64,000 nt of DNA, from assembly GCF_054482525.1 (NCBI RefSeq), contig NZ_CM137006.1, one strand, 5' to 3'. The position numbers and the translations under genes were made by a program. The first letter of the stretch is position 1, and every line of letters starts with the position of its first letter. This document shows, one piece after another, positions 1 to 34,611 of this stretch. Below the pieces are notes generated by a model. The model was not told where the DNA came from. It saw only the letters and a program-made list of their open reading frames with translations, and made no database searches.

Positions 1-44
1 AACATCTTTGCAATCTTTTTTTGCTTATCTGTTGCGTTTGACAT
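1..44 (-). CDS. orf110 hypothetical protein, 5' 44 nt only (rest lies left of window)
   Basis: Positions 1-44 correspond to 8744-8787 of the complete copy-2 ORF 8455-8787. Confidence 0.4.
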   Translation of the reverse strand, partial: MSNATDKQKKIAKM

Positions 45-67
45 TTTCCCTTTCCCTTCAACTAGAT

Positions 68-364
68 TTAATCATTACATTCAACCGTTGCTACGGTTCC
101 ATAATAAGTAATGTAAAGAAAACTTCCATTATTGAACTGGCCAACAGAGGTCGATACTTTTACCCCGTAAATGACATTTCCTTGTCTACCTGCAGAATTC
201 ACGAACGCATCATAGGCTTCCTGGTGCTCATTTCTCTTGCGCTCCATAAAACCACGAATTAAACCTTTATCAGAAATTTCAATAGGATAGGTCTTCTCAA
301 TAAATCCATGAATCTCTACTACTTTCATATTGGAGGGCAATGTATCAGTGCTTAACACTAACAT
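68..364 (-). CDS. orf98, hypothetical accessory protein (first gene of a minus-strand two-gene cassette)
   Basis: 98-aa ORF with AAGGA Shine-Dalgarno about 8 nt upstream of the ATG; no TM segment or signal peptide apparent; no family recognised by eye. Confidence 0.55.
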   Translation of the reverse strand: MLVLSTDTLPSNMKVVEIHGFIEKTYPIEISDKGLIRGFMERKRNEHQEAYDAFVNSAGRQGNVIYGVKVSTSVGQFNNGSFLYITYYGTVATVECND

Positions 365-471
365 GTTGATTTCCTTTCAATTAAAGAACCTTAATGACAT
401 TACTTAATTATTTCATTTCAATCAACAACATATGGGTTGTTTTTTATCATTCCGACACTATATCTAGGCGA

Positions 472-494
472 GATAACTAAAATGGCTAGTTATC
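472..494. promoter_or_regulatory. Operator-like palindrome GATAACTA-N7-TAGTTATC in the divergent promoter region between orf98 and the 96-aa gene (recurs at +8743 multiples)
   Basis: Perfect 8-bp inverted repeat with 7-bp spacer, flanked by direct CACTATA repeats (456-462, 494-500), about 25 bp upstream of the ATG at 519. Confidence 0.4.
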
Positions 495-518
495 ACTATA
501 CCTCTAAAGGATAAAATA

Positions 519-809
519 ATGGCTGACTTCTACATAACAGCAGTAAAATATGATGAAAATCATGAACATATCGTTAAGGTTAAAACACGGCAACGAGTTG
601 ATGGTAAGGTTAAAGCACCAAGCATCAATTCTCGCCAATTTATCGTCGAATTGATTAATACCGGAAAGGTATCATTTTGGACTGGATTACAGGATAGCGA
701 AGGACGATGGGGAAAAGGGGCTGACGTGACCGTAACCTCTACTGGTTTCCTGACTACATCACCAAATAATACCACTCGGGATAACCTCGGCGAATTGCCT
801 GAATTTTAA
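519..809 (+). CDS. Hypothetical small protein (96 aa), possibly DUF3892-like
   Basis: AAAGG Shine-Dalgarno 8 nt upstream; the DUF3892 assignment rests on a recalled pattern only (N-terminal Y-I-T-x-V, H-x-H-I, C-terminal DNL-x-x-LPE) and needs an HMM search. Confidence 0.5.
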   Translation: MADFYITAVKYDENHEHIVKVKTRQRVDGKVKAPSINSRQFIVELINTGKVSFWTGLQDSEGRWGKGADVTVTSTGFLTTSPNNTTRDNLGELPEF

Positions 810-817
810 CCAAAAAT

Positions 818-850
818 CAAACGTGCAGTGTAGGTAATACTGCACGTTTG
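818..850. terminator. Stem-loop (11-bp stem) between convergent 96-aa gene and HTH gene; likely bidirectional terminator (recurs per copy)
   Basis: CAAACGTGCAG-N11-CTGCACGTTTG; T-run on the minus-strand side (ATTTTTGG). Confidence 0.55.
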
Positions 851-873
851 TCTCATTCCTGAGACTCTACCTT

Positions 874-1320
874 TTACTGTTCATCGCCAGTGATTAATTT
901 TCTGGTTAACATCTTTGCACTGTAGCTATATGAACTTAAAGCAGAAACCTGTCTTGCAAGTGATATGATATCTTGCTTGTCCAATGTCCTGATGTTCCAG
1001 ATAATGAAGTTATGGGCATCAGTGGTTTCTTTGTCAGTGTAACCATCTGCTGAAGTGATCAACTTTCTTTCTGTTGCGTCTTCTTTAACCGCAAGTGCAT
1101 CACCATGAGCCAAGGTGTTTAAATCCGTACCAGTGATTTTTGCGATTTCGATCACATCACTGAACTTAGGTTCTGTTTTAGCAGTCGCTATCCTAACAAG
1201 TGTCCTTACGTTGATGCCGGTTTTGTCTGCGACTTCTTCGTATGTCCCATGCTCCAGGATAGCTTTCCGTATTCTTTCTGCTCGCTTGCTATCAGCCATA
1301 ACATACAACTCTCGATTCAT
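874..1320 (-). CDS. HTH (XRE/Cro-C1-type) transcriptional regulator, candidate prophage repressor
   Basis: 148 aa; helix-turn-helix signature around residues 26-46 (TYEEVADKTGINVRTLVRIA); GGAG Shine-Dalgarno 9 nt upstream; divergent from gII across an operator-rich intergenic region. Confidence 0.7.
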   Translation of the reverse strand: MNRELYVMADSKRAERIRKAILEHGTYEEVADKTGINVRTLVRIATAKTEPKFSDVIEIAKITGTDLNTLAHGDALAVKEDATERKLITSADGYTDKETTDAHNFIIWNIRTLDKQDIISLARQVSALSSYSYSAKMLTRKLITGDEQ

Positions 1321-1364
1321 CTTAGGTGCTCCAGTTTACATCACTCTTTTTAGATGCTTTTTTT

Positions 1365-1442
1365 CATGGACAAATATGTCCTTAAAAACAAGACATCGTA
1401 TTGACAACAGATCTCAACATGCTTAGCATTTATTTGTCCATG
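1365..1442. promoter_or_regulatory. Candidate operator pair in the HTH-gII divergent intergenic region (recurs per copy)
   Basis: 12-mer TATTTGTCCATG at 1431-1442 with its reverse complement at 1365-1377; embedded palindrome GGACA-N4-TGTCC at 1368-1381; a degenerate third copy near 1455-1472. Confidence 0.45.
1401..1429 (+). promoter_or_regulatory. Candidate sigma70 promoter for gII (TTGACA-17 bp-TAGCAT)
   Basis: Consensus -35 hexamer at 1401-1406, 17-bp spacer, -10-like TAGCAT at 1424-1429; operator 12-mer lies at the predicted start region. Confidence 0.35.
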
Positions 1443-1526
1443 ACTGAAAGACACATTTGTCTATTGACATGGTAAATACAGGTAAAAGTCATTTTGATTC
1501 ATGTTTACTTGACTGCTGAGACACTT

Positions 1527-2579
1527 ATGATCGACTGGTTTACCGGAATCCTGCCTTGCACACACCGACCGTTACCGGCCGGTAGCGTCGTCAGCGTTGA
1601 TGCTGATGGTGCGGTGGAGTGGGAAACAGTAAAACGGTTGACCGTTCGCGGTTCGTATGAATCAACGATGAAAGTAAGATCTGTTGGATCTGATGGCGAA
1701 GGTCGGGCAACACATCTTTATATTGATGGGAATCCTTCAAAATTCCTTCAGGGACATTCTGTTATTGGTTCTGATGATTTGCAGGGACTGGTATTAACCG
1801 TATACGCAAGAATACTGGCATTACTTCATATTCCTCATGATCTCCCGTCATATCGTCAGGTAATGTCTGGTCAGTATAAGATTTCCCGTATTGATATTAA
1901 TTATATGTATTCATTGTCAACACTGGAAAATGTCCGTGCATGGTTATATGCCGCAGAATTTAAAGCGAAAACTCGCCATGGTCGCGCCTGTGGTAAAGGT
2001 GGCACTGTTTACTTAGGGAAAAACTCCCGTCGTTGGAGCCTGAAATTTTATTCAAAATATGATGAGCATATATCTGGCAAAAAAGGGCACCAGATGGCAG
2101 ACGAATTCGTTAAAGCAGGTTTACTGGACTGGTCAAAAGATAAATTACGCATTGAATTAACATTAAGAACAACTGAATTAATTGATTTGAATCTTACGCT
2201 TGGTAATAGCTGGAATATTCAGACGCCCAATAAATTATTCTCTGACTATGTAGGGAGAATAGAAATGAATCAAAATACTATATTAACTGATGAAAAAATA
2301 ATTAATCTCCCAAGAAAAATACAGTCTACATATTTATTGTGGAAGCAGGGCGCGAACATGAAAGAGATGTTACCGAAACCTACATTCTACCGACACCGTA
2401 AAGAATTACTTTCTTTCGGAATAGATATTAACTTTTATTGTGAGTCACCGGATTCTAATAACGTTGTTCCGTTGGTTCGTATTCTTGAAGCCAAACCGGC
2501 CAAAATTCCATCATGGTTTTATGAGAAAGGTTTAATTTTCGATCATAACCGTATTTCACATGCCAGTAACTGGTATTAA
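1527..2579 (+). CDS. gII: Rolling-circle replication initiator, gene II protein homologue
   Basis: N-terminus MIDWF and C-terminal block NNVVPLVR align with M13 gIIp as recalled; alternative in-frame ATG at 1494 (ORF-track start). Confidence 0.85.
   Translation: MIDWFTGILPCTHRPLPAGSVVSVDADGAVEWETVKRLTVRGSYESTMKVRSVGSDGEGRATHLYIDGNPSKFLQGHSVIGSDDLQGLVLTVYARILALLHIPHDLPSYRQVMSGQYKISRIDINYMYSLSTLENVRAWLYAAEFKAKTRHGRACGKGGTVYLGKNSRRWSLKFYSKYDEHISGKKGHQMADEFVKAGLLDWSKDKLRIELTLRTTELIDLNLTLGNSWNIQTPNKLFSDYVGRIEMNQNTILTDEKIINLPRKIQSTYLLWKQGANMKEMLPKPTFYRHRKELLSFGIDINFYCESPDSNNVVPLVRILEAKPAKIPSWFYEKGLIFDHNRISHASNWY
2265..2579 (+). CDS. gX: Gene X-like protein, in-frame internal restart within gII
   Basis: Internal ATG preceded by GGGAG (9 nt); MNQNT start aligns with the M13 gX start (EGDSMNIYDD versus GRIEMNQNT). 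Confidence 0.55.
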   Translation: MNQNTILTDEKIINLPRKIQSTYLLWKQGANMKEMLPKPTFYRHRKELLSFGIDINFYCESPDSNNVVPLVRILEAKPAKIPSWFYEKGLIFDHNRISHASNWY

Positions 2580-2590
2580 AGGAGAGTGAT

Positions 2591-2908
2591 ATGTCTAATT
2601 ATGGTCTTTTTGTAAAAGGTAAAATGCTTGGTGCTCGCCAGCGTAATAAGGTCAATGGTCAGGGATACTATAATGAAATTGGTATTGGCTTAGAGATCCC
2701 TGATGGTTTTGGCGGCACTAAGCAAGACCAGATTATTATTCGTGTTTCTCAGGCTCTTGTTAATGCCGGTGTAATGAATCAGGCAAATAATCTTATCGGT
2801 AAGTTAGTCCAGATACCTGTATATGTTCGTGTCTGGTCAATGGAAGGTAGAGAAGGAGTAACTTATAATATTTCATCTGACGGTGGAATCACTGAAATAA
2901 AAGGTTAA
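2591..2908 (+). CDS. gV: Putative ssDNA-binding protein, gene V analogue
   Basis: 105-aa ORF immediately after gII with AAGGAGAG Shine-Dalgarno; Ff-like position; only weak motif resemblance to M13 gVp. Confidence 0.55.
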   Translation: MSNYGLFVKGKMLGARQRNKVNGQGYYNEIGIGLEIPDGFGGTKQDQIIIRVSQALVNAGVMNQANNLIGKLVQIPVYVRVWSMEGREGVTYNISSDGGITEIKG

Positions 2909-2910
2909 AT

Positions 2911-2997
2911 ATGGCTGATGTTATACAAATATTAATAGCGTCAGGCATTGTTATCTCTTTTGGCCTCGGCGCAATTACTGCGGGGGTTTTTCGTTAA
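2911..2997 (+). CDS. gVII: Minor coat protein, gene VII analogue (28 aa)
   Basis: MADVIQILIASGIVISFGLGAITAGVFR; hydrophobic; C-terminal half resembles M13 gVIIp; too short for the ORF track. Confidence 0.5.
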   Translation: MADVIQILIASGIVISFGLGAITAGVFR

Positions 2998-3092
2998 TGT
3001 ATATAGCTTATTTCTTCGGGGCTTATACCTTTGGTTTTGCCCTTTTCTACGCGGTCGGTTCATTTAAATCATTTTCTGACCGATTAATGTAA
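2997..3092 (+). CDS. gIX: Minor coat protein, gene IX analogue (31 aa)
   Basis: MYIAYFFGAYTFGFALFYAVGSFKSFSDRLM; start overlaps the gVII stop by 1 nt (TAATG), as is typical for Ff VII/IX coupling. Confidence 0.45.
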   Translation: MYIAYFFGAYTFGFALFYAVGSFKSFSDRLM

Positions 3093-3116
3093 TGTAACTT
3101 TAATGGAGTTATTTAT

Positions 3117-3359
3117 ATGAAAGTTTTGTCTTTTGTTAAATCTAAAATTGCAGTAGCTTCAACAGCGCTTTTTGTTTCTGCGAGTTCTTTTGCGGCAGCT
3201 GAGTCTACAGGCGGGACTGATTATGCAGGTCAGGCAATGGATGCATTACTGACTCAGGCAAATGATCTTATTGGTAAAGTATGGCCTGTCGTTGTTGCTG
3301 TGGTTGGTGCTGGCCTTGCCATTCGTATTTTTAAAAAATTCGCTTCTAAAGCAGTTTAA
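3117..3359 (+). CDS. gVIII: Major coat protein precursor
   Basis: 80 aa; signal peptide ending SFAAAE, acidic N-terminus, hydrophobic core, basic C-terminus [12 protein letters not shown] (inovirus major-coat signature); GGAG Shine-Dalgarno. Confidence 0.85.
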
Positions 3360-3369
3360 AATTCACTCA

Positions 3370-3392
3370 GGGGCATTTGTTGCCCCTTTATT
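3370..3392 (+). terminator. Rho-independent terminator after the major coat gene (recurs per copy)
   Basis: GGGGCA-tttgt-TGCCCC followed by TTTATT; same position as the strong terminator after gVIII in Ff phages. Confidence 0.65.
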
Positions 3393-3405
3393 AAATTGGG
3401 TTATT

Positions 3406-4650
3406 ATGAAAAGGAAAATATTAATTACTTTCTCTATTTTTATTTCTTCTTTTTCATATGCTGATTCATGGGAAAGCATTACTAAATCTACTTTTCAAAG
3501 CTCTGCATATGCTGAAAGTAAGCAAATAACCAACCAAGATGGTACTAAACAAACTGTTTATTATATTGATGCAACCATGCAGGCTTCTTCCTGTCAGGGA
3601 GCTAAAGACAGTGCTCAGGTTGTTTTTAATCAGGTTAAACCAACTTATGAGGGAATGTGGCCTAACTCTGAATTCCGTCTTGTATTTTCTGACGCTTGTA
3701 CTTACAGCGACTCTCCAGGCCAGAAAGATAAATACTGGACTTTAACTGCTTATATTATAGGTGATATTCAACGATCTATTCCTGATGAAAAACCTTCCGA
3801 GCCTACGCCTGAAGAGATTTGTGAAGCTAAACCCCCCGAAGAAGGTGTATTCAATAATGTCTATTCTTATGACGGTGATCGTTATATTTATTATAACGGT
3901 TGTGAATATGAGGCCACTGGCGTCATTGTTTGCCAGAGTGATAGCACTGTTTGTGCTGCGACATGGAAGCCTACCGGAACTGTAGCCGCACCTTCAGATA
4001 AGCCTTCTTCTCCTGTTGGCGATGGCGGTGATACTGGAGGCGGGGATACGGGTGATGGTGATACCGGTGGAGGTGATACAGGCGGTGGTAACCCAAGTGG
4101 CAGTTCTGGCGGTGGTAATGGCTCAAGTATCACCAAAGGAGATATTCAGTCAGCTATCGAAGGTGCTTCACCTAAAATTGCCAGTGAGATTCATGATAAG
4201 TTAACAGAAAAAGATACCTCATCTGATGATAAAAAGTCGGCTGATGAACAGACTAAAAATAATATAAATCGTCTTGTTGACTCTATAAATAACCTTACTC
4301 GCGGAGCCGGACGTTTTGCTGATCCTTCTGGCGGCGATTCCCGTTATGGGGAGGGGGGGTCTGAATTAGATAGCGCTTCCACTTTAGCTGAATCTGAATT
4401 AGGAATTGCAAAGGATTCTCATGGTGCGTTATGGGAGGCTTTCTTAAATAAAGGTGCTATGTTGCCCAATTTACCTAATGGTAATGGTTGTTCTGATTTT
4501 ATTATTTTCCCCGGAGAGGTTTATCAGATCGATATTGGCTGCGATAAATTACTGACTATTAAAAATGCTCTTTCATGGGTTTTTTATTGCCTTACGTTCT
4601 GGTATGTATTTACTTCTTTAACTTCATTGCTTCGTAAAGGTGGTGAGTGA
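3406..4650 (+). CDS. gIII: Minor coat / adsorption protein pIII
   Basis: Signal peptide [19 protein letters not shown], Cys-containing N-terminal domains, Gly/Asp-rich linker repeats, C-terminal membrane anchor; ORF-track ORF 3262-4650 trimmed to the first in-frame ATG after the gVIII terminator. Confidence 0.8.
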
Positions 4651-4991
4651 TGCCTTTATTATTAGGTATTCCTGCATTGTTGCGTTTTCTTATTGGTCTT
4701 GTTCCTTTACTTATTGGCTATGCGGCAAGTTTTTTAGCTCGGCTTGCAACCAAAACAGGTTTAATAGCGGTTGCATTGGTTGCGCTAATTACAACAACTG
4801 TTACGCTTTTAATGCAGTACCTTGCTGAGGTCATGTATATCGGGTTACCCGCTGATTTTTCACATCTAATGGCGTCTGTACTGCCTGACCATTTTCAGGC
4901 GTGTGTTAACGTTATTATGGTTACTCGTATCAGTGTTTTTGTTTTCGATTTAAAACAAAAATTTCTTGATTATGCAAACAGGGTGATTTAA
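4647..4991 (+). CDS. gVI: Minor coat protein pVI
   Basis: 114 aa, hydrophobic; [15 protein letters not shown] aligns with M13 pVI MPVLLGIPLLLRFL. Confidence 0.8.
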
Positions 4992-6086
4992 ATGGCGGTT
5001 CATGTAGTAACAGGCAAATTAGGCTCAGGCAAGACACTGGTTAGTGTTTCCAGAATACAGGAAAGACTGGCTAAGGGTTGTCCTGTTGCCACTAATCTTG
5101 ATCTTAAATTGCATAATATGCCTATGGTTGGGCGTTATGCTAAAAAAACGCGCGTTATTCGTGTTCCTGATAAGCCTTCATTAAATGATTTACTGGCTAT
5201 TGGTATTGGAAATACATCTTACGATGAATCCCGCAATGGCCTTTTAGTGCTTGATGAATGTGGTACTTGGTTTAATTCCCGTTCATGGGGTGATAAAGAC
5301 AGACAACCTGTTATTGACTGGTTTTTACATGCCCGTAAATTAGGTTGGGATATTATTTTTTTGATTCAGGATATTTCGATAATGGATAAGCAAGCTCGTC
5401 TGGCACTTGCTGAACATGTTGTTTATTGTCGCCGTTCAGATAAATTAAACATTCCTTTTATTGGCTCTATTATAAATTTAGTTTCAGGAGCGCGATTTTC
5501 TTTACCAAAGGTACACTTTGGTATTGTTAAATATGGTGATAACGTTAATTCAATTACTGTTGATAAATGGATATACACCGGAAAATCATTATATTCCGCC
5601 TACAATACAAAACAGGTTTTTACTGATAACTATCCGCATGGTGCTTATTCTCTTTTACCGCCATTTATTACACATGGCCAGTTTTCTGTTCACAAAGGAC
5701 TTAATTATTATATGCGCCTCACGAAAATTTATTTCCGAAAATCAAACCGATTAATATTAATGCTTTCATTTTTTGCCTTTGGGCTTGGGCTTGGCTTCTG
5801 GCTACAATCTGGTAAGAATGCCGATGAAATTTCGGCTATTAAATCAGTTCATGCTGAACAGGTGAGGGCGGTAACACCTGACAGTACCAGCGATTTACCG
5901 AGACTTTCTATTGATTCTTTCTCTCAGCTTGGTTTTGATGTTTCTGTTACGTTTGTTGACGCTAAGGGTATGAAGTACCAGTATTTTGATTTAATTAAAG
6001 ATGGTTATTCCGTTGATATTAAAGATGCCTGCCGAATTGTTATCAGAAAAGGCCATTATTTACAAAGCGTCACCTGTCAGGAGTAA
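4992..6086 (+). CDS. gI: Assembly ATPase pI (Zot-like)
   Basis: 364 aa; Walker A GKLGSGKT; extensive similarity to M13 pI along the length as recalled. Confidence 0.9.
   Translation: MAVHVVTGKLGSGKTLVSVSRIQERLAKGCPVATNLDLKLHNMPMVGRYAKKTRVIRVPDKPSLNDLLAIGIGNTSYDESRNGLLVLDECGTWFNSRSWGDKDRQPVIDWFLHARKLGWDIIFLIQDISIMDKQARLALAEHVVYCRRSDKLNIPFIGSIINLVSGARFSLPKVHFGIVKYGDNVNSITVDKWIYTGKSLYSAYNTKQVFTDNYPHGAYSLLPPFITHGQFSVHKGLNYYMRLTKIYFRKSNRLILMLSFFAFGLGLGFWLQSGKNADEISAIKSVHAEQVRAVTPDSTSDLPRLSIDSFSQLGFDVSVTFVDAKGMKYQYFDLIKDGYSVDIKDACRIVIRKGHYLQSVTCQE
5712..6086 (+). CDS. gXI: pXI-like protein, in-frame internal restart within gI
   Basis: Internal Met at codon 241 (MRLTKIYFRK), the same codon position as M13 pXI (MKLTKIYLKK). 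Confidence 0.5.
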   Translation: MRLTKIYFRKSNRLILMLSFFAFGLGLGFWLQSGKNADEISAIKSVHAEQVRAVTPDSTSDLPRLSIDSFSQLGFDVSVTFVDAKGMKYQYFDLIKDGYSVDIKDACRIVIRKGHYLQSVTCQE

Positions 6087-6093
6087 TATTACT

Positions 6094-7359
6094 ATGCGTT
6101 TATTTTGCATTGCCATCTTATTCATTTATTCTTTTTGTGTTTCTGCTGAAACTGTTAATCTTAATAATTCATCCGTTCGTTCATTTGTCCAGTGGTATTC
6201 ATCAAAAACTGGTAAGCCTGTTATTGTTAACCCCGATGTTAAAGGCTCCGTAACAGTATTTAATGCTGATGTTAATCCCACAAATATTGATGACTTTTTC
6301 AAATCTGTTCTGAATGCTAATGGATTTGTCATGCTTTCTGGTAATCCTGCGGTAGTATCTTTGCCGTCAAAATTACCGTCACAGATGGCATCAGACCCTG
6401 ATGATTCCGATAATCAGTCTTATGACTCTTTTCCGCCAGAGCCATCCTGTCAGCCAGCGCCTGTGGCGCTCACTGTCAGAAATTTTAAGCTGACAAAAGT
6501 ACGAGCGTCTGATGTTCAGCAACTGGTTAAAATTTATCTGGATTCGAATGGCGGGGGTAATGTCGTGGATTATCCCGGCAATAACTCCCTGATTGTATCT
6601 GCGCCTGACGAGCTACTGCCTGTTCTGTCCAATTTCATTAACTCAGTTGATGTTGCCCGTGATCAGGTACTCATTCAATCGCTCATGTTTGAAACCAGTT
6701 TGTCTGATGGTGTTGATTTGTCATTTGCAGCTGGCTCTGCATCCGGCCATAAGGTGGCGGGGGGTTTTAATACTTCTGCGCTGGGTAATGCTCTTTCTAC
6801 GGTGGGCGGCTCTTTTGGTATTTTTGATGGTAACGTGTTGGCGCTGTCTCTGCGTGCTGTCCAGAGTAATTCACGCTCTAAGGTGATTTCAACACCGCGC
6901 ATTCTTACTCAGTCCGGTCAGACTGGTTATATTTCCGTAGGTAAGAATGTGCCGTTTATCACAGGAAAGGTAACGGGTGAATCTGCTGGGGTAAATAATC
7001 CGTTTCAGACTATCGAACGTCATGATGTTGGCGTTTCTCTCAAGGTAACGCCTGTTGTCATGGGGAACGGGCAATTAGTTTTGACCATCGATACCCGCGC
7101 CGATTCAATCAGCAATGATGACCAAGCATCTGATATTATTACTAATCAGCGCCAGATTCAGACCACTGTTCAGATTAAGGATGGCCAGACTCTCTTACTT
7201 GGTGGGTTGATTGATTCATCATCCAGCAATGCTGACCGTTCTGTACCATTTATCAGCAAAATTCCGGTAATTGGCTGGCTTTTCAGGAGTAAAGCTGACA
7301 GTAATGAGCAACGCATTATGTATGTCCTGCTGACTGCTCATATTATTCGTGCGCTTTGA
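6094..7359 (+). CDS. gIV: Secretin pIV (outer-membrane export channel)
   Basis: 421 aa from the ATG with AGGAG Shine-Dalgarno; signal peptide MRLFCIAILFIYSFCVSA; secretin motifs conserved with M13 pIV (e.g. GQNVPFITG-like, VPFISKIPVIG). Confidence 0.9.
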   Translation: MRLFCIAILFIYSFCVSAETVNLNNSSVRSFVQWYSSKTGKPVIVNPDVKGSVTVFNADVNPTNIDDFFKSVLNANGFVMLSGNPAVVSLPSKLPSQMASDPDDSDNQSYDSFPPEPSCQPAPVALTVRNFKLTKVRASDVQQLVKIYLDSNGGGNVVDYPGNNSLIVSAPDELLPVLSNFINSVDVARDQVLIQSLMFETSLSDGVDLSFAAGSASGHKVAGGFNTSALGNALSTVGGSFGIFDGNVLALSLRAVQSNSRSKVISTPRILTQSGQTGYISVGKNVPFITGKVTGESAGVNNPFQTIERHDVGVSLKVTPVVMGNGQLVLTIDTRADSISNDDQASDIITNQRQIQTTVQIKDGQTLLLGGLIDSSSSNADRSVPFISKIPVIGWLFRSKADSNEQRIMYVLLTAHIIRAL

Positions 7360-7402
7360 TGGGGCCGTGGCGGGTGCGTTAAGCCCCGGTATGGCCCCAT
7401 CA
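7357..7402 (+). terminator. Compound hairpin immediately after the secretin gene stop (recurs per copy)
   Basis: TGATGGGGCC ... GGCCCCATCA 10-bp inverted repeat enclosing a GC-rich inner region; start of the phage intergenic region. Confidence 0.4.
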
Positions 7403-7799
7403 AGAGCCAGATTTTACGTCTCACCACGGAGCCTCTATATGGCCTTAAAACTGACAGGATATGAACAGAAAAACATCTTCTAGGTGATTCAATTACTTAG
7501 AGGTTTTTATGTCTGTAAAAAGTAGGGGCGCGATCGACTTCCTGGTGGTCGCCTGAAGTCTTACCGTCGTGTTGGTTCACATTTTACCAGTTGTTCCAAG
7601 TGGTTTGATAAATCACCGTCCTGGTATCGCAATATGATGATGACCCGGCCAGAGCGCCGTGAAGTCAGAAAGCTTCTCAATCAGGTTGTACGTGGCCGTG
7701 ACGCTGACGGCATCGCATTTCCGGTCAGCAACAAGCCATTTGCATGGCGGTGGTGAACATTTTTAGCCGCTAAAACTTCATGCTGACGGAATTATCGAA

Positions 7800-7844
7800 A
7801 ACCCCGTACAGCAACAAAACTTGTTTTTGTTGCTGTACGGGGTT
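7800..7844. other. Perfect 20-bp-stem hairpin (5-nt loop) in the intergenic region: candidate packaging signal and/or minus-strand terminator for orf81 (recurs per copy)
   Basis: AAACCCCGTACAGCAACAAAA-cttgt-TTTTGTTGCTGTACGGGGTT; TTTTC follows on the minus strand. Confidence 0.5.
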
Positions 7845-7906
7845 GGCCAAGCCGCAACAGTACTCTATTTTTCTTTGGAGTTAATTGCGGCGCGGCTAGG
7901 GATGTA

Positions 7907-8420: not shown

Positions 8421-8454
8421 TCTTTAGCATAACGTCATTGTGCGAACCAATTAT

Positions 8455-26273: not shown

Positions 26274-26296
26274 TTTCCCTTTCCCTTCAACTAGAT

Positions 26297-26747: not shown

Positions 26748-27038
26748 ATGGCTGACTTCTACATAACAGCAGTAAAATATGATGAAAATCATGAACATAT
26801 CGTTAAGGTTAAAACACGGCAACGAGTTGATGGTAAGGTTAAAGCACCAAGCATCAATTCTCGCCAATTTATCGTCGAATTGATTAATACCGGAAAGGTA
26901 TCATTTTGGACTGGATTACAGGATAGCGAAGGACGATGGGGAAAAGGGGCTGACGTGACCGTAACCTCTACTGGTTTCCTGACTACATCACCAAATAATA
27001 CCACTCGGGATAACCTCGGCGAATTGCCTGAATTTTAA
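26748..27038 (+). CDS. Hypothetical small protein (96 aa), possibly DUF3892-like (copy 4)
   Basis: Repeat at +26229. Confidence 0.5.
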   Translation: MADFYITAVKYDENHEHIVKVKTRQRVDGKVKAPSINSRQFIVELINTGKVSFWTGLQDSEGRWGKGADVTVTSTGFLTTSPNNTTRDNLGELPEF

Positions 27039-27102
27039 CCAAAAATCAAACGTGCAGTGTAGGTAATACTGCACGTTTGTCTCATTCCTGAGACTCTACC
27101 TT

Positions 27103-27549
27103 TTACTGTTCATCGCCAGTGATTAATTTTCTGGTTAACATCTTTGCACTGTAGCTATATGAACTTAAAGCAGAAACCTGTCTTGCAAGTGATATGATAT
27201 CTTGCTTGTCCAATGTCCTGATGTTCCAGATAATGAAGTTATGGGCATCAGTGGTTTCTTTGTCAGTGTAACCATCTGCTGAAGTGATCAACTTTCTTTC
27301 TGTTGCGTCTTCTTTAACCGCAAGTGCATCACCATGAGCCAAGGTGTTTAAATCCGTACCAGTGATTTTTGCGATTTCGATCACATCACTGAACTTAGGT
27401 TCTGTTTTAGCAGTCGCTATCCTAACAAGTGTCCTTACGTTGATGCCGGTTTTGTCTGCGACTTCTTCGTATGTCCCATGCTCCAGGATAGCTTTCCGTA
27501 TTCTTTCTGCTCGCTTGCTATCAGCCATAACATACAACTCTCGATTCAT
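27103..27549 (-). CDS. HTH regulator, candidate repressor (copy 4)
   Basis: Repeat at +26229. Confidence 0.7.
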   Translation of the reverse strand: MNRELYVMADSKRAERIRKAILEHGTYEEVADKTGINVRTLVRIATAKTEPKFSDVIEIAKITGTDLNTLAHGDALAVKEDATERKLITSADGYTDKETTDAHNFIIWNIRTLDKQDIISLARQVSALSSYSYSAKMLTRKLITGDEQ

Positions 27550-27755
27550 CTTAGGTGCTCCAGTTTACATCACTCTTTTTAGATGCTTTTTTTCATGGAC
27601 AAATATGTCCTTAAAAACAAGACATCGTATTGACAACAGATCTCAACATGCTTAGCATTTATTTGTCCATGACTGAAAGACACATTTGTCTATTGACATG
27701 GTAAATACAGGTAAAAGTCATTTTGATTCATGTTTACTTGACTGCTGAGACACTT

Positions 27756-28808
27756 ATGATCGACTGGTTTACCGGAATCCTGCCTTGCACACACCGACCG
27801 TTACCGGCCGGTAGCGTCGTCAGCGTTGATGCTGATGGTGCGGTGGAGTGGGAAACAGTAAAACGGTTGACCGTTCGCGGTTCGTATGAATCAACGATGA
27901 AAGTAAGATCTGTTGGATCTGATGGCGAAGGTCGGGCAACACATCTTTATATTGATGGGAATCCTTCAAAATTCCTTCAGGGACATTCTGTTATTGGTTC
28001 TGATGATTTGCAGGGACTGGTATTAACCGTATACGCAAGAATACTGGCATTACTTCATATTCCTCATGATCTCCCGTCATATCGTCAGGTAATGTCTGGT
28101 CAGTATAAGATTTCCCGTATTGATATTAATTATATGTATTCATTGTCAACACTGGAAAATGTCCGTGCATGGTTATATGCCGCAGAATTTAAAGCGAAAA
28201 CTCGCCATGGTCGCGCCTGTGGTAAAGGTGGCACTGTTTACTTAGGGAAAAACTCCCGTCGTTGGAGCCTGAAATTTTATTCAAAATATGATGAGCATAT
28301 ATCTGGCAAAAAAGGGCACCAGATGGCAGACGAATTCGTTAAAGCAGGTTTACTGGACTGGTCAAAAGATAAATTACGCATTGAATTAACATTAAGAACA
28401 ACTGAATTAATTGATTTGAATCTTACGCTTGGTAATAGCTGGAATATTCAGACGCCCAATAAATTATTCTCTGACTATGTAGGGAGAATAGAAATGAATC
28501 AAAATACTATATTAACTGATGAAAAAATAATTAATCTCCCAAGAAAAATACAGTCTACATATTTATTGTGGAAGCAGGGCGCGAACATGAAAGAGATGTT
28601 ACCGAAACCTACATTCTACCGACACCGTAAAGAATTACTTTCTTTCGGAATAGATATTAACTTTTATTGTGAGTCACCGGATTCTAATAACGTTGTTCCG
28701 TTGGTTCGTATTCTTGAAGCCAAACCGGCCAAAATTCCATCATGGTTTTATGAGAAAGGTTTAATTTTCGATCATAACCGTATTTCACATGCCAGTAACT
28801 GGTATTAA
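27756..28808 (+). CDS. gII: Replication initiator gII homologue (copy 4)
   Basis: Repeat at +26229; nested gX-like restart at 28494. Confidence 0.85.
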   Translation: MIDWFTGILPCTHRPLPAGSVVSVDADGAVEWETVKRLTVRGSYESTMKVRSVGSDGEGRATHLYIDGNPSKFLQGHSVIGSDDLQGLVLTVYARILALLHIPHDLPSYRQVMSGQYKISRIDINYMYSLSTLENVRAWLYAAEFKAKTRHGRACGKGGTVYLGKNSRRWSLKFYSKYDEHISGKKGHQMADEFVKAGLLDWSKDKLRIELTLRTTELIDLNLTLGNSWNIQTPNKLFSDYVGRIEMNQNTILTDEKIINLPRKIQSTYLLWKQGANMKEMLPKPTFYRHRKELLSFGIDINFYCESPDSNNVVPLVRILEAKPAKIPSWFYEKGLIFDHNRISHASNWY

Positions 28809-28819
28809 AGGAGAGTGAT

Positions 28820-29137
28820 ATGTCTAATTATGGTCTTTTTGTAAAAGGTAAAATGCTTGGTGCTCGCCAGCGTAATAAGGTCAATGGTCAGGGATACTAT
28901 AATGAAATTGGTATTGGCTTAGAGATCCCTGATGGTTTTGGCGGCACTAAGCAAGACCAGATTATTATTCGTGTTTCTCAGGCTCTTGTTAATGCCGGTG
29001 TAATGAATCAGGCAAATAATCTTATCGGTAAGTTAGTCCAGATACCTGTATATGTTCGTGTCTGGTCAATGGAAGGTAGAGAAGGAGTAACTTATAATAT
29101 TTCATCTGACGGTGGAATCACTGAAATAAAAGGTTAA
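28820..29137 (+). CDS. gV: Putative ssDNA-binding protein gV analogue (copy 4)
   Basis: Repeat at +26229. Confidence 0.55.
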   Translation: MSNYGLFVKGKMLGARQRNKVNGQGYYNEIGIGLEIPDGFGGTKQDQIIIRVSQALVNAGVMNQANNLIGKLVQIPVYVRVWSMEGREGVTYNISSDGGITEIKG

Positions 29138-29139
29138 AT

Positions 29140-29226
29140 ATGGCTGATGTTATACAAATATTAATAGCGTCAGGCATTGTTATCTCTTTTGGCCTCGGCG
29201 CAATTACTGCGGGGGTTTTTCGTTAA
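29140..29226 (+). CDS. gVII: gVII analogue (copy 4)
   Basis: Repeat at +26229. Confidence 0.5.
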   Translation: MADVIQILIASGIVISFGLGAITAGVFR

Positions 29227-29321
29227 TGTATATAGCTTATTTCTTCGGGGCTTATACCTTTGGTTTTGCCCTTTTCTACGCGGTCGGTTCATTTAAATCA
29301 TTTTCTGACCGATTAATGTAA
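29226..29321 (+). CDS. gIX: gIX analogue (copy 4)
   Basis: Repeat at +26229. Confidence 0.45.
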   Translation: MYIAYFFGAYTFGFALFYAVGSFKSFSDRLM

Positions 29322-29345
29322 TGTAACTTTAATGGAGTTATTTAT

Positions 29346-29588
29346 ATGAAAGTTTTGTCTTTTGTTAAATCTAAAATTGCAGTAGCTTCAACAGCGCTTT
29401 TTGTTTCTGCGAGTTCTTTTGCGGCAGCTGAGTCTACAGGCGGGACTGATTATGCAGGTCAGGCAATGGATGCATTACTGACTCAGGCAAATGATCTTAT
29501 TGGTAAAGTATGGCCTGTCGTTGTTGCTGTGGTTGGTGCTGGCCTTGCCATTCGTATTTTTAAAAAATTCGCTTCTAAAGCAGTTTAA
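29346..29588 (+). CDS. gVIII: Major coat protein precursor (copy 4)
   Basis: Repeat at +26229. Confidence 0.85.
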
Positions 29589-29634
29589 AATTCACTCAGG
29601 GGCATTTGTTGCCCCTTTATTAAATTGGGTTATT

Positions 29635-30879
29635 ATGAAAAGGAAAATATTAATTACTTTCTCTATTTTTATTTCTTCTTTTTCATATGCTGATTCATGG
29701 GAAAGCATTACTAAATCTACTTTTCAAAGCTCTGCATATGCTGAAAGTAAGCAAATAACCAACCAAGATGGTACTAAACAAACTGTTTATTATATTGATG
29801 CAACCATGCAGGCTTCTTCCTGTCAGGGAGCTAAAGACAGTGCTCAGGTTGTTTTTAATCAGGTTAAACCAACTTATGAGGGAATGTGGCCTAACTCTGA
29901 ATTCCGTCTTGTATTTTCTGACGCTTGTACTTACAGCGACTCTCCAGGCCAGAAAGATAAATACTGGACTTTAACTGCTTATATTATAGGTGATATTCAA
30001 CGATCTATTCCTGATGAAAAACCTTCCGAGCCTACGCCTGAAGAGATTTGTGAAGCTAAACCCCCCGAAGAAGGTGTATTCAATAATGTCTATTCTTATG
30101 ACGGTGATCGTTATATTTATTATAACGGTTGTGAATATGAGGCCACTGGCGTCATTGTTTGCCAGAGTGATAGCACTGTTTGTGCTGCGACATGGAAGCC
30201 TACCGGAACTGTAGCCGCACCTTCAGATAAGCCTTCTTCTCCTGTTGGCGATGGCGGTGATACTGGAGGCGGGGATACGGGTGATGGTGATACCGGTGGA
30301 GGTGATACAGGCGGTGGTAACCCAAGTGGCAGTTCTGGCGGTGGTAATGGCTCAAGTATCACCAAAGGAGATATTCAGTCAGCTATCGAAGGTGCTTCAC
30401 CTAAAATTGCCAGTGAGATTCATGATAAGTTAACAGAAAAAGATACCTCATCTGATGATAAAAAGTCGGCTGATGAACAGACTAAAAATAATATAAATCG
30501 TCTTGTTGACTCTATAAATAACCTTACTCGCGGAGCCGGACGTTTTGCTGATCCTTCTGGCGGCGATTCCCGTTATGGGGAGGGGGGGTCTGAATTAGAT
30601 AGCGCTTCCACTTTAGCTGAATCTGAATTAGGAATTGCAAAGGATTCTCATGGTGCGTTATGGGAGGCTTTCTTAAATAAAGGTGCTATGTTGCCCAATT
30701 TACCTAATGGTAATGGTTGTTCTGATTTTATTATTTTCCCCGGAGAGGTTTATCAGATCGATATTGGCTGCGATAAATTACTGACTATTAAAAATGCTCT
30801 TTCATGGGTTTTTTATTGCCTTACGTTCTGGTATGTATTTACTTCTTTAACTTCATTGCTTCGTAAAGGTGGTGAGTGA
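29635..30879 (+). CDS. gIII: Adsorption protein pIII (copy 4)
   Basis: Repeat at +26229. Confidence 0.8.
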
Positions 30880-31220
30880 TGCCTTTATTATTAGGTATTC
30901 CTGCATTGTTGCGTTTTCTTATTGGTCTTGTTCCTTTACTTATTGGCTATGCGGCAAGTTTTTTAGCTCGGCTTGCAACCAAAACAGGTTTAATAGCGGT
31001 TGCATTGGTTGCGCTAATTACAACAACTGTTACGCTTTTAATGCAGTACCTTGCTGAGGTCATGTATATCGGGTTACCCGCTGATTTTTCACATCTAATG
31101 GCGTCTGTACTGCCTGACCATTTTCAGGCGTGTGTTAACGTTATTATGGTTACTCGTATCAGTGTTTTTGTTTTCGATTTAAAACAAAAATTTCTTGATT
31201 ATGCAAACAGGGTGATTTAA
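30876..31220 (+). CDS. gVI: Minor coat protein pVI (copy 4)
   Basis: Repeat at +26229. Confidence 0.8.
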
Positions 31221-32315
31221 ATGGCGGTTCATGTAGTAACAGGCAAATTAGGCTCAGGCAAGACACTGGTTAGTGTTTCCAGAATACAGGAAAGACTGGC
31301 TAAGGGTTGTCCTGTTGCCACTAATCTTGATCTTAAATTGCATAATATGCCTATGGTTGGGCGTTATGCTAAAAAAACGCGCGTTATTCGTGTTCCTGAT
31401 AAGCCTTCATTAAATGATTTACTGGCTATTGGTATTGGAAATACATCTTACGATGAATCCCGCAATGGCCTTTTAGTGCTTGATGAATGTGGTACTTGGT
31501 TTAATTCCCGTTCATGGGGTGATAAAGACAGACAACCTGTTATTGACTGGTTTTTACATGCCCGTAAATTAGGTTGGGATATTATTTTTTTGATTCAGGA
31601 TATTTCGATAATGGATAAGCAAGCTCGTCTGGCACTTGCTGAACATGTTGTTTATTGTCGCCGTTCAGATAAATTAAACATTCCTTTTATTGGCTCTATT
31701 ATAAATTTAGTTTCAGGAGCGCGATTTTCTTTACCAAAGGTACACTTTGGTATTGTTAAATATGGTGATAACGTTAATTCAATTACTGTTGATAAATGGA
31801 TATACACCGGAAAATCATTATATTCCGCCTACAATACAAAACAGGTTTTTACTGATAACTATCCGCATGGTGCTTATTCTCTTTTACCGCCATTTATTAC
31901 ACATGGCCAGTTTTCTGTTCACAAAGGACTTAATTATTATATGCGCCTCACGAAAATTTATTTCCGAAAATCAAACCGATTAATATTAATGCTTTCATTT
32001 TTTGCCTTTGGGCTTGGGCTTGGCTTCTGGCTACAATCTGGTAAGAATGCCGATGAAATTTCGGCTATTAAATCAGTTCATGCTGAACAGGTGAGGGCGG
32101 TAACACCTGACAGTACCAGCGATTTACCGAGACTTTCTATTGATTCTTTCTCTCAGCTTGGTTTTGATGTTTCTGTTACGTTTGTTGACGCTAAGGGTAT
32201 GAAGTACCAGTATTTTGATTTAATTAAAGATGGTTATTCCGTTGATATTAAAGATGCCTGCCGAATTGTTATCAGAAAAGGCCATTATTTACAAAGCGTC
32301 ACCTGTCAGGAGTAA
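31221..32315 (+). CDS. gI: Assembly ATPase pI (copy 4)
   Basis: Repeat at +26229; nested pXI-like restart at 31941. Confidence 0.9.
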   Translation: MAVHVVTGKLGSGKTLVSVSRIQERLAKGCPVATNLDLKLHNMPMVGRYAKKTRVIRVPDKPSLNDLLAIGIGNTSYDESRNGLLVLDECGTWFNSRSWGDKDRQPVIDWFLHARKLGWDIIFLIQDISIMDKQARLALAEHVVYCRRSDKLNIPFIGSIINLVSGARFSLPKVHFGIVKYGDNVNSITVDKWIYTGKSLYSAYNTKQVFTDNYPHGAYSLLPPFITHGQFSVHKGLNYYMRLTKIYFRKSNRLILMLSFFAFGLGLGFWLQSGKNADEISAIKSVHAEQVRAVTPDSTSDLPRLSIDSFSQLGFDVSVTFVDAKGMKYQYFDLIKDGYSVDIKDACRIVIRKGHYLQSVTCQE

Positions 32316-32322
32316 TATTACT

Positions 32323-33588
32323 ATGCGTTTATTTTGCATTGCCATCTTATTCATTTATTCTTTTTGTGTTTCTGCTGAAACTGTTAATCTTAATAATTCA
32401 TCCGTTCGTTCATTTGTCCAGTGGTATTCATCAAAAACTGGTAAGCCTGTTATTGTTAACCCCGATGTTAAAGGCTCCGTAACAGTATTTAATGCTGATG
32501 TTAATCCCACAAATATTGATGACTTTTTCAAATCTGTTCTGAATGCTAATGGATTTGTCATGCTTTCTGGTAATCCTGCGGTAGTATCTTTGCCGTCAAA
32601 ATTACCGTCACAGATGGCATCAGACCCTGATGATTCCGATAATCAGTCTTATGACTCTTTTCCGCCAGAGCCATCCTGTCAGCCAGCGCCTGTGGCGCTC
32701 ACTGTCAGAAATTTTAAGCTGACAAAAGTACGAGCGTCTGATGTTCAGCAACTGGTTAAAATTTATCTGGATTCGAATGGCGGGGGTAATGTCGTGGATT
32801 ATCCCGGCAATAACTCCCTGATTGTATCTGCGCCTGACGAGCTACTGCCTGTTCTGTCCAATTTCATTAACTCAGTTGATGTTGCCCGTGATCAGGTACT
32901 CATTCAATCGCTCATGTTTGAAACCAGTTTGTCTGATGGTGTTGATTTGTCATTTGCAGCTGGCTCTGCATCCGGCCATAAGGTGGCGGGGGGTTTTAAT
33001 ACTTCTGCGCTGGGTAATGCTCTTTCTACGGTGGGCGGCTCTTTTGGTATTTTTGATGGTAACGTGTTGGCGCTGTCTCTGCGTGCTGTCCAGAGTAATT
33101 CACGCTCTAAGGTGATTTCAACACCGCGCATTCTTACTCAGTCCGGTCAGACTGGTTATATTTCCGTAGGTAAGAATGTGCCGTTTATCACAGGAAAGGT
33201 AACGGGTGAATCTGCTGGGGTAAATAATCCGTTTCAGACTATCGAACGTCATGATGTTGGCGTTTCTCTCAAGGTAACGCCTGTTGTCATGGGGAACGGG
33301 CAATTAGTTTTGACCATCGATACCCGCGCCGATTCAATCAGCAATGATGACCAAGCATCTGATATTATTACTAATCAGCGCCAGATTCAGACCACTGTTC
33401 AGATTAAGGATGGCCAGACTCTCTTACTTGGTGGGTTGATTGATTCATCATCCAGCAATGCTGACCGTTCTGTACCATTTATCAGCAAAATTCCGGTAAT
33501 TGGCTGGCTTTTCAGGAGTAAAGCTGACAGTAATGAGCAACGCATTATGTATGTCCTGCTGACTGCTCATATTATTCGTGCGCTTTGA
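32323..33588 (+). CDS. gIV: Secretin pIV (copy 4)
   Basis: Repeat at +26229. Confidence 0.9.
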   Translation: MRLFCIAILFIYSFCVSAETVNLNNSSVRSFVQWYSSKTGKPVIVNPDVKGSVTVFNADVNPTNIDDFFKSVLNANGFVMLSGNPAVVSLPSKLPSQMASDPDDSDNQSYDSFPPEPSCQPAPVALTVRNFKLTKVRASDVQQLVKIYLDSNGGGNVVDYPGNNSLIVSAPDELLPVLSNFINSVDVARDQVLIQSLMFETSLSDGVDLSFAAGSASGHKVAGGFNTSALGNALSTVGGSFGIFDGNVLALSLRAVQSNSRSKVISTPRILTQSGQTGYISVGKNVPFITGKVTGESAGVNNPFQTIERHDVGVSLKVTPVVMGNGQLVLTIDTRADSISNDDQASDIITNQRQIQTTVQIKDGQTLLLGGLIDSSSSNADRSVPFISKIPVIGWLFRSKADSNEQRIMYVLLTAHIIRAL

Positions 33589-34135
33589 TGGGGCCGTGGC
33601 GGGTGCGTTAAGCCCCGGTATGGCCCCATCAAGAGCCAGATTTTACGTCTCACCACGGAGCCTCTATATGGCCTTAAAACTGACAGGATATGAACAGAAA
33701 AACATCTTCTAGGTGATTCAATTACTTAGAGGTTTTTATGTCTGTAAAAAGTAGGGGCGCGATCGACTTCCTGGTGGTCGCCTGAAGTCTTACCGTCGTG
33801 TTGGTTCACATTTTACCAGTTGTTCCAAGTGGTTTGATAAATCACCGTCCTGGTATCGCAATATGATGATGACCCGGCCAGAGCGCCGTGAAGTCAGAAA
33901 GCTTCTCAATCAGGTTGTACGTGGCCGTGACGCTGACGGCATCGCATTTCCGGTCAGCAACAAGCCATTTGCATGGCGGTGGTGAACATTTTTAGCCGCT
34001 AAAACTTCATGCTGACGGAATTATCGAAAACCCCGTACAGCAACAAAACTTGTTTTTGTTGCTGTACGGGGTTGGCCAAGCCGCAACAGTACTCTATTTT
34101 TCTTTGGAGTTAATTGCGGCGCGGCTAGGGATGTA

Positions 34136-34381
34136 TCAGACTTTAATCTTAACTACTTTTTCAGTGCCGGTCATAAAACTAACCAGCTTCTTGCGGCCAT
34201 CGGGATACTCTTTAATGACACATCCTTCTGGCGTATTTTTTTCAGCGTAATAAATAGGGACGCCACTAAGAAGACAGGCTCGGGCTGCTTCACCGACATC
34301 ATGTTCTAGTTGCTGCTCGAAAACAGTCAAGAACTCTGCTTCCTCTGATGGTGTCATTTCAGCTAAATATGATAAGTCCAT
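34136..34381 (-). CDS. orf81 hypothetical accessory protein (copy 4)
   Basis: Repeat at +26229. Confidence 0.45.
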   Translation of the reverse strand: MDLSYLAEMTPSEEAEFLTVFEQQLEHDVGEAARACLLSGVPIYYAEKNTPEGCVIKEYPDGRKKLVSFMTGTEKVVKIKV

Positions 34382-34583
34382 AAATGCTCATGCCTTCTGT
34401 AATTCATTGCTTAGTAACAATGATGAACAGGCCTGATTGGTGAGGTCAGGCTGTTCACTTACTGCTGACAGACATTTGATTCTGATTCGTTTGGAGAAAC
34501 GGATGATTTTGAATCATTGTCGATAGTAACCAGTTGACGGCCAGTGTCAACGATCCCCGCCAGATTCTGCCATCCTTACCATT

Positions 34584-34611
34584 GGTGCGCATAATGTATA
34601 TTATGTTAAAT
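34584..34611 (+). other. dif: Chromosomal dif site (XerC arm, 6-bp central region, XerD arm)
   Basis: Exact 28-mer GGTGCGCATAATGTATATTATGTTAAAT, the canonical E. coli dif as recalled; phage sequence ends within or next to the central region. Confidence 0.93.

Follow-up and report, generated by a model that had tools for sequence, protein, structure and literature searches.

The window analysed here, a 64,000-nucleotide (nt) stretch of contig NZ_CM137006.1 from RefSeq assembly GCF_054482525.1, opens with tandem copies of an 8,743-bp filamentous prophage (inovirus) that are integrated at the chromosomal dif site of Escherichia coli. A reading of this DNA made from its letters alone (the sequence-only reading) had described at least four identical head-to-tail copies with an exact 8,743-nt period. 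When the window is compared with itself at a shift of 8,743 nt, positions 1-25854 and 8744-34597 show zero mismatches and the first mismatch is 25855 against 34598; no other period fits, all values from 8,700 to 8,800 nt having been tried. The periodic block, window 1-34597, is 34,597 nt or 3.957 units long. It comprises three complete units, from attachment (att) site to att site, and a fourth, leftmost one that is short by 389 nt solely because the window starts inside it, as had been said. Four copies is therefore a fair lower bound, the literal content of the window being three full units and a cut one. The rightmost complete unit is 100% identical both to the single-copy prophage in GCA_029947865.1 and to the phage on another public contig (L014).

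The right end of the array is marked by a 28-bp dif, GGTGCGCATAATGTATATTATGTTAAAT, which occurs once in the window, at the place where the 8,743-nt periodicity stops after GGTGCGCATAATGT. The identical 28-mer is found in K-12 MG1655, between yneL and hipA on the opposite strand, and in the phage-free strain PCN033. At the internal junctions (8355, 17098 and 25841) the XerC arm is instead followed by phage sequence, GGTGCGCATAA-TGTGCTACACGTTATGT..., which begins TGTGCTACACG. Single-copy lysogens of the same phage have the two ends that this arrangement predicts: their attL consists of host flank, XerC arm and phage centre, their attR of phage end and canonical dif, and the attR junction of the window is exactly theirs. 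In Yersinia pestis NCTC5923, attL carries the host XerC arm GGTGCACATAA and the internal junction carries the phage arm GGTGCGCATAA. A crossover at the border between XerC arm and centre would be consistent with this pattern of arms and with the boundary of identity after GGTGCGCATAATGT.

Each internal junction forms the 5' arm of a predicted imperfect hairpin in the packaged (+) strand, in which the XerC arm pairs with an inverted partner arm. The site is laid out as XerC arm GGTGCGCATAA, TG, a 6-nt bulge TGCTAC, an XerD-like arm TTATGTTGAAA, a GC-rich stem-loop and the inverted partner arm, which ends GTGCGAACCAAT. The XerC arm matches dif at 11 of 11 positions and the XerD-like arm at 9 of 11. 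Folded as single-stranded DNA (ssDNA), the site reaches -34 kcal/mol, against -12.4 ± 2.7 for shuffled sequences (z = -8.1). We compared it in ten distinct relatives, drawn from E. coli UPphi-type and CUS-1-type prophages, an episomal replicative form, Y. pestis, Pectobacterium, Lelliottia, Kluyvera and a metagenomic bin. Variation is confined to 13 of 94 columns, nine of them within the bulge or loop and one at the edge of the bulge; 32 of the 36 stem pairs never vary, and the TGT that follows the XerC arm, and is shared with the centre of dif, is invariant. In the duplex form 11 bp, rather than 6, separate the good XerD-like arm from the XerC arm, and at the proper spacing just 6 of 11 positions match, so the site looks built to work folded. 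A conserved inverted partner arm stands 68 nt away, and hairpin formation is its only evident purpose. We predict from these features that the element is a single-strand attP of the CTXphi/Ypfphi type. The internal junction was also considered as a usable duplex dif-like site, and was rejected on the 6/11 match of its XerD arm at the correct spacing.

Parts of this site also turn up elsewhere. A piece of 71-76 nt (window 25864-25939), with the XerD-like arm, the GC-rich stem-loop and the inverted partner arm and without the XerC arm, is found at ~90% identity on ~425 plasmids, mostly conjugative IncF plasmids of E. coli, Klebsiella and Salmonella. The one plasmid inspected, pCombat11I9-2 (NZ_CP021728.1, ~4001-4071), carries it between genes, downstream of a MacB-type efflux operon. 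The piece may have been left behind by an inovirus that once integrated, or it may be an independent element resembling a terminator. Two metagenome-assembled genomes of unrelated phyla, labelled 'Candidatus Nanosynbacter' (L030) and 'Ruminococcaceae' (L038), include contigs on which host flank, XerC arm and inovirus hairpin form an attL of E. coli type; these contigs are almost certainly binning contaminants.

Genes of the unit were assigned with PHROGs, NCBIfam and Pfam profiles, some of the Pfam matches being made on the identical protein or gene in other assemblies (Table 1). The module runs gII(/X)-gV-gVII-gIX-gVIII-gIII-gVI-gI-gIV, the order of Ff-like Inoviridae, with gIX placed by position only, and the profile searches confirm the complete Ff-type gene set that had been read from the translations. 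The core genes align end to end with their homologues in relatives, so none is truncated. No integrase or transposase had been seen, and none is matched by the 13 open reading frames (ORFs) scanned. Accessory genes sit at the ends of the unit, with orf110, orf98 and orf96 after the att site and a small ORF and orf81 before it. For orf110, orf98 and orf81, searches with PADLOC, PDB sequences, NCBIfam and Pfam found no significant match, and the accessory genes have no match to a known defence protein or solved structure. A scan of the whole window against Rfam returned zero matches, and comparison with the intergenic region of phage I2-2, for the origin or gII nick site, gave only chance-level matches beyond the candidate packaging hairpin. 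Between the small ORF that follows gIV and orf81 lies a perfect inverted repeat of 20 nt whose loop is 5 nt long (AACCCCGTACAGCAACAAAA / TTTTGTTGCTGTACGGGGTT; window 34029-34073 and at -8,743 steps), possibly a terminator or part of an origin. Inside it, at 34034, is one of five single-nucleotide polymorphisms (SNPs) that separate haplotypes of the phage.

Table 1. Features of the prophage array and of its repeated unit. Positions within the unit refer to its rightmost copy; subtract 8,743, 17,486 or 26,229 for the others.
Feature	Position	Strand	Evidence or remark
Leftmost prophage copy	1..8354	+	Without the first 389 nt of the unit (attP hairpin and 3' part of orf110); window edge
Complete prophage unit 1	8355..17097	+	XerC arm of one junction to that of the next
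Complete prophage unit 2	17098..25840	+	Periodicity, junction positions
Complete prophage unit 3, rightmost	25841..34583	+	Periodicity, junction positions
attP region, predicted imperfect hairpin, ~100 nt, packaged (+) strand	25838..25937	+	Inverted repeats, DNA fold, conservation; further copies 8352-8451, 17095-17194
orf110, accessory, adjoins attL	25941..26273	-	No family match; called as a gene in public assemblies
orf98, accessory	26297..26593	-	No significant family or PDB match
orf96, DUF3892-domain accessory protein	26748..27038	+	Pfam PF13031, E = 4e-9; phrog_32719
Helix-turn-helix (HTH) transcriptional regulator, putative phage repressor	27103..27549	-	phrog_3557, E = 1e-61; divergent from gII, position of RstR/YPO2273
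Inverted repeats between repressor gene and gII	27586..27693	.	Candidate operator, promoter or origin elements
gII, rolling-circle replication initiator (II/X family)	27756..28808	+	TIGR01629, E = 7e-78; phrog_702
gV, ssDNA-binding protein	28820..29137	+	phrog_1547; PF17426 on identical protein
gVII, minor coat protein, 28 aa	29140..29226	+	ORF; PF19978 Inovirus_G7P_2 on identical gene in L010
gIX candidate, 31-aa hydrophobic ORF	29226..29321	+	Position only; start overlaps gVII stop; called as 31-aa gene in relative L019
gVIII, major coat protein	29346..29588	+	phrog_1646; PF19199
gIII, attachment protein, Gly/Asp-rich linker	29635..30879	+	phrog_4150, E = 2e-247; PF21443
gVI (DUF5455)	30876..31220	+	phrog_1944; PF17537
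gI, Zot-family assembly ATPase	31221..32315	+	phrog_1675, E = 3e-175; 75.5% nt to I2-2 gene I
gIV, secretin	32323..33588	+	phrog_1012, E = 5e-152; 74% aa to I2-2 pIV
Hairpin directly 3' of gIV, candidate packaging (morphogenetic) signal	33585..33632	+	Inverted repeat; aligns to I2-2 region overlapping the annotated morphogenetic signal
Putative small ORF, 67 aa (40 aa from ATG at 33863)	33782..33985	+	Called in some assemblies only
orf81, accessory, adjoins attR	34136..34381	-	phrog_21003, E = 4e-55; widespread among related prophages
Canonical dif (attR), 28 bp	34584..34611	+	XerC arm GGTGCGCATAA, centre TGTATA, XerD arm TTATGTTAAAT; regenerated at right end of array

To the right of the array, window 34598-64000 is 99.986% identical over 29.4 kb to E. 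coli PCN033, whose dif is empty. Its gene order (a yneL-like fragment, the fimbrial operon ydeT-ydeQ, ydeP, safA, ydeO and onwards) is that of the K-12 terminus region, reversed. Several points that the sequence-only reading had made about the surroundings of the phage thus hold: the array ends at a canonical dif, the exact K-12 28-mer; the flank corresponds to the K-12 terminus in reverse orientation, and the host is E. coli; and the phage is AT-richer than the flank, with 40.3% GC in the unit vs 44.9%. Three smaller features lie close to the boundary. A 72-aa ORF (34455-34673, -) that spans dif from the flank into the phage is a junction artefact. Adjoining dif, 34780-35034 (+) encodes just the C-terminal 84 aa of an AraC/HTH regulator, equivalent to the yneL pseudogene. 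The fimbrial usher nearby (37146-39797, +) is full length (883 aa), and is so in PCN033 too; the corresponding ydeT of K-12 is a 1,149-nt remnant.

The complete unit is present at dif in many public E. coli assemblies with different flanks, at 99.8-100% identity and with at most six SNPs, which argues for recent horizontal spread. Elsewhere the same phage is found as one copy (for example in GCA_029947865.1), as two copies with both flanks (L015) and on a contig that starts inside an array (L014). The exact orf110 protein is encoded in 88 index blocks of public assemblies and the exact orf81 protein in 1,021, and the longest contig carrying the gene is just 5-10 kb in 43 and 366 of these, respectively. 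Since such unit-length contigs are common, short-read assemblies appear often to isolate these phages, as expected for tandem or episomal copies, and assemblies of that kind systematically lose copy number. None of the complete RefSeq E. coli genomes has the exact phage, the best match being avian pathogenic E. coli (APEC) E19057 with 97.8% identity over 79% of the unit; three of these genomes hold a close variant (96-98% identical) with one copy each of the structural module.

Arrays themselves are common. The structural module is present in 55 of the 5,426 complete E. coli genomes surveyed; with each gI-gIV copy scored as one place, the median is two copies. There is one place in 16 of these genomes, two in about 33, three in four, four in one (K-15KW01) and 16 in the error-ridden EC5502, so that about 70% have two or more. 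All arrays inspected share one side of dif and one orientation. ECONIH2 (period 8,344) and both arrays of strain F11 (8,586 and 9,088) likewise have tandem copies with 100% identity to one another. Copies without any difference are thus what such arrays normally show and are no special signal, contrary to the earlier suggestion that they imply very recent amplification, gene conversion or an artefact; the caveat that assembly may have altered the copy number stands. For Ypfphi, two to four tandem copies at dif have been described, with an intact dif on the 3' side (PMC4266046), and for UPphi tandem triples are reported and triples or quadruples may be seen (PMC7307601). The tandem arrangement is the usual, already documented state for this kind of phage.

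Four other genomes illustrate the variety of forms in this phage complex. The dif locus of the uropathogenic strain E. coli F11 (NZ_CP076123.1, locus 1-29278) is mixed: UPphi-type copies (period 8,586), at least two and identical, come first, a pair of identical CUS-1/Ypfphi-type copies (9,088) comes next, and canonical dif closes the array. A single genome among 229 had been reported to have both UPphi and Ypfphi-type phages, and there they did not co-occur at dif (PMC7307601). In E. coli ERP001 (CP063214.1) a short element lies on the hipA side, beside a gene-deleted copy of a close relative. Virion genes are absent from it, and its content is limited to orf81, gII, the regulator and two accessory ORFs, a layout that recalls the RS1 satellite of CTXphi. 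The 9,565-bp 'untypable plasmid' of E. coli TUM14759 (NZ_CP128883.1) is an inovirus genome of CUS-1 type, circular and complete and with its attP hairpin intact, and is most likely a replicative form; several junction matches are present on the chromosome too, so replicative forms coexist with prophages in this complex. EC5502 (NZ_CP092647.1) has a UPphi-type array that lies across the start of the record, with 16 gI-gIV places and many frameshifted genes. It looks like an unpolished long-read consensus in a repeat and shows how unreliable arrays can be in 'complete' genomes.

Taken together, we think it highly probable that the window holds a head-to-tail array, at least 3.96 identical copies long, of an 8,743-bp temperate mosaic inovirus that integrated at E. 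coli dif by a CTXphi/Ypfphi-like mechanism. In CTXphi, the folded (+) strand integrates by XerC-only exchange, and the site in the duplex prophage is masked, so integration is irreversible; (+) strands are made by rolling-circle-like synthesis between tandem prophages, and the arrays arise from successive integrations (PMC3089051, PMC3442271). The attP of CUS-1 and Ypfphi has the features needed for integration of ssDNA (PMC3089051), and Ypfphi has inverted XerC/XerD sites (PMC4266046). A filamentous ssDNA virion has been shown for Ypfphi (PMC4266046), UPphi prophages shed phage DNA, and DNase-protected DNA has been shown for UPphi901 (PMC7307601). By analogy, the anatomy of the attachment site and the lack of a recombinase of its own would fit CTXphi logic, with tandem copies enabling rolling-circle production, and the combination of a Ypfphi/CUS-1-type attP with a gII/gV module of that type makes a CTXphi-like life cycle the most likely one for the window phage.

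Such a cycle would begin with the packaged (+) strand folding attP into a hairpin, its XerC- and XerD-binding arms placed around a bulged centre. Host XerC would swap one strand pair with dif at the border between XerC arm and centre, the shared TGT supporting the exchange, and replication afterwards would fix the insertion. The unit would then lie between the XerC arm and the centre of dif, with a canonical dif regenerated on the right that would be usable for dimer resolution and for more integrations. Repeated integrations, at dif or between copies, from one pool of replicative form would produce an array of identical copies, with homologous recombination possibly assisting. The hairpin site would be masked in the duplex, and Xer excision of the prophage would not be expected. 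Protein gII would nick one copy at its origin and terminate at that of the next copy, releasing unit-length (+) strands; the lysogen would stay productive by virtue of its tandem copies.

Several points weigh against this reading. There are no compensatory changes in any of the 36 stem pairs of attP among the ten relatives, the stems being almost invariant, so the predicted fold rests on conservation and thermodynamics and not on covariation. In the paired central region one strand would contribute 5 bp and the other 11 nt, an arrangement that differs from CTXphi. Many public assemblies contain this phage as a single copy, so it can be maintained without a tandem array. How many copies a perfect 35-kb repeat contains rests wholly on the assembly; with a repeat that is perfect over 34.6 kb, only reads exceeding the length of the array can fix the number. 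The sequence by itself does not prove that the phage is active.

The array might instead descend from one integration, followed by RecA-dependent unequal crossing-over or by replication-associated duplication near the terminus, and contribute nothing to the production of phage. Since no junction differs from another, the sequence is compatible with either route, and the review of Ypfphi allows homologous recombination as a source of copy number (PMC4266046). We nevertheless consider this unlikely, as the first duplication from a single copy has no repeat for recombination to use and a functional dif is regenerated after each event. Moreover, the number of integrated CTXphi copies falls with integration efficiency (nth mutant), which favours successive integrations (PMC3442271).

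That the number of copies is a product of assembly strikes us as distinctly unlikely. On this account the prophage at dif is real, and an array of one to three copies was expanded, or reads of the episomal replicative form or of rolling-circle concatemers were threaded in, with polishing leaving identical copies. Independent complete genomes have two, three and four identical copies at the same site, Ypfphi arrays have been shown experimentally (PMC4266046), the attR junction is that of single-copy lysogens, and we saw no internal irregularity hinting at a join. What keeps the idea alive is that so perfect a repeat can be counted only by longer reads and that related arrays do trouble assemblers: besides the 16 frameshift-ridden places of EC5502, the cut that linearises the K-15KW01 record falls within its array, and the L014 contig likewise begins within one. 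Episomal forms do exist in this phage complex, in roughly half of the index blocks a contig of 5-10 kb carries the phage alone, and the three complete RefSeq genomes with the 96-98% variant each hold a single structural-module copy. The objection touches the number only, and neither the prophage nor its tandem nature.

The array may be longer than four copies, as the window begins inside it and a public contig with the identical phage also starts inside one. We are very doubtful of the bolder proposal that it is far longer. Such a length might reflect selection for many copies of the phage genome or of the cargo peculiar to it (orf110, orf98 and the DUF3892 protein orf96), or else continual re-integration at dif in a chronically producing lysogen, which would affect replication of the terminus or dimer resolution. 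Equally doubtful is that the mosaic of a UPphi virion with Ypfphi replication, integration and immunity is a newly successful, actively spreading phage type. Integration as a double-stranded replicative form in the manner of VGJphi, with XerCD excision possible and the tandem copies incidental, is highly improbable: the duplex junction offers a perfect XerC arm and TGT homology with dif, and Ypfphi is unstable or extrachromosomal in many hosts (PMC4266046), but in the duplex the XerD position matches at 6/11 and the 9/11 arm lies at 11 bp rather than 6, and the conserved inverted partner arm 68 nt away evidently serves only a hairpin.

The importance of the array is modest. It adds a distinct and widely disseminated lineage to the dif-integrating inoviruses of Enterobacterales and shows that modules are exchanged between the UPphi and Ypfphi/CUS-1 groups; the lineage is new, and the arrangement itself is already documented. 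Identical tandem copies at dif are biology and not necessarily error, and assemblies collapse, break or miscount such arrays. Phages of this kind are linked to the fitness of extraintestinal E. coli and Y. pestis, and their cargo genes may therefore deserve testing.

For comparison with known phages we used the prophage of ECONIH2, which PMC7307601 lists among UPphi carriers with three copies in tandem, as the UPphi reference; the prophage of Y. pestis NCTC5923, retrieved by a scan of species-representative genomes for the hairpin core, as Ypfphi; and the second prophage type of E. coli F11 as CUS-1-type. The last two are 99.4% identical over 7,366 nt, which agrees with the published relation of CUS-1 to Ypfphi (PMC4266046). 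A megablast of the unit against 50,697 phage records, a set in which Ypfphi, CUS-1 and UPphi are absent as phage entries, matched only 488 nt of I2-2 gene I.

The sequence-only reading had called the phage a member or relative of the Ypfphi/CUS-1 group. This stands for the repressor (75% aa identity), gII (97% aa), gV (98% aa), the attP hairpin (96% nt) and a short stretch of 294 nt at the right end (85% nt), and the phages also share a similar size (8.7 kb), integration at dif with dif regenerated 3', and tandem arrays of two to four copies (PMC4266046). It does not stand for the virion and assembly genes, which are of UPphi type: gVIII, gIII, gVI and gI have no detectable similarity to those of Ypfphi/CUS-1, gIV has 27% aa identity over part of its length, and the accessory genes differ. 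At the nucleotide level the likeness amounts to 1,407 nt at 93.7% and short pieces, far from the ~99% identity across a ~7.1-kb core with structural genes that marks the group. The comparison by BLAST that the same reading had proposed thus finds Ypfphi and CUS-1 in the replication module and attP and, for the structural genes, a relative of I2-2 instead. The window phage is no strain of Ypfphi/CUS-1, although tandem integration at dif, attP and the gII/gV replication-integration module are common to both.

UPphi is the closer relative in the remainder of the unit. The seven core proteins of the window phage are 82-96% identical to those of ECONIH2 (gII 85%, gV 93%, gVIII 89%, gIII 82%, gVI 96%, gI 95% and gIV 93% aa), and the core gene set and its order, the dif locus, side and orientation, the attP hairpin, the tandem identical copies and the reverse-orientation accessory ORFs just past the att site are all as in UPphi. 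However, identity over the core is ~86% nt, the repressor, orf110, orf98, orf96 and orf81 have no tblastn match in the ECONIH2 unit, by which measure the UPphi901 accessory genes h1-h3 are not shared, and gII and gV of the window phage are closer to Ypfphi than to UPphi. Unit sizes differ as well, at 8,743 bp here vs 7,560 bp for UPphi901 and 8,344 bp for ECONIH2. Members of UPphi are at least 98% aa identical to UPphi901, resemble I2-2 and IKe, and have only genes II and V in common with Ypfphi (Shapiro & Putonti 2020, PMC7307601). With 82-96% aa and ~86% nt identity, the window phage is a sister lineage of UPphi, outside the published clade.

The more distant I2-2/IKe phages have homologous genes in the same order (42-74% aa identity to I2-2; gene I 75.5% nt), and the hairpin after gIV aligns to the morphogenetic-signal region of I2-2, but I2-2 has no att/dif site, repressor or accessory genes and does not lysogenise. 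On gene comparison the window phage is a mosaic, with gVIII, gIII, gVI, gI and gIV of UPphi/I2-2 type and repressor, gII, gV and attP of Ypfphi/CUS-1 type. With CTXphi it appears to share a folded single-strand attP made of two inverted dif-like sites, and it has no phage recombinase, a regenerated dif, tandem prophages and a divergent repressor adjoining the replication gene; the logic of the tandem array is itself taken from CTXphi (PMC3089051, PMC3442271). Host and dif differ, the hairpin is ~100 nt vs ~150 nt in CTXphi, and the window phage has a secretin gene of its own (gIV) and no toxin cargo. Of the traits of CTX-type integrative mobile elements exploiting Xer (IMEX), insertion at dif, regeneration of dif on one side and the lack of an element-encoded recombinase are all found here, and inverted dif-like sites that bring XerC and XerD arms together around a partly unpaired centre are present in the predicted fold.

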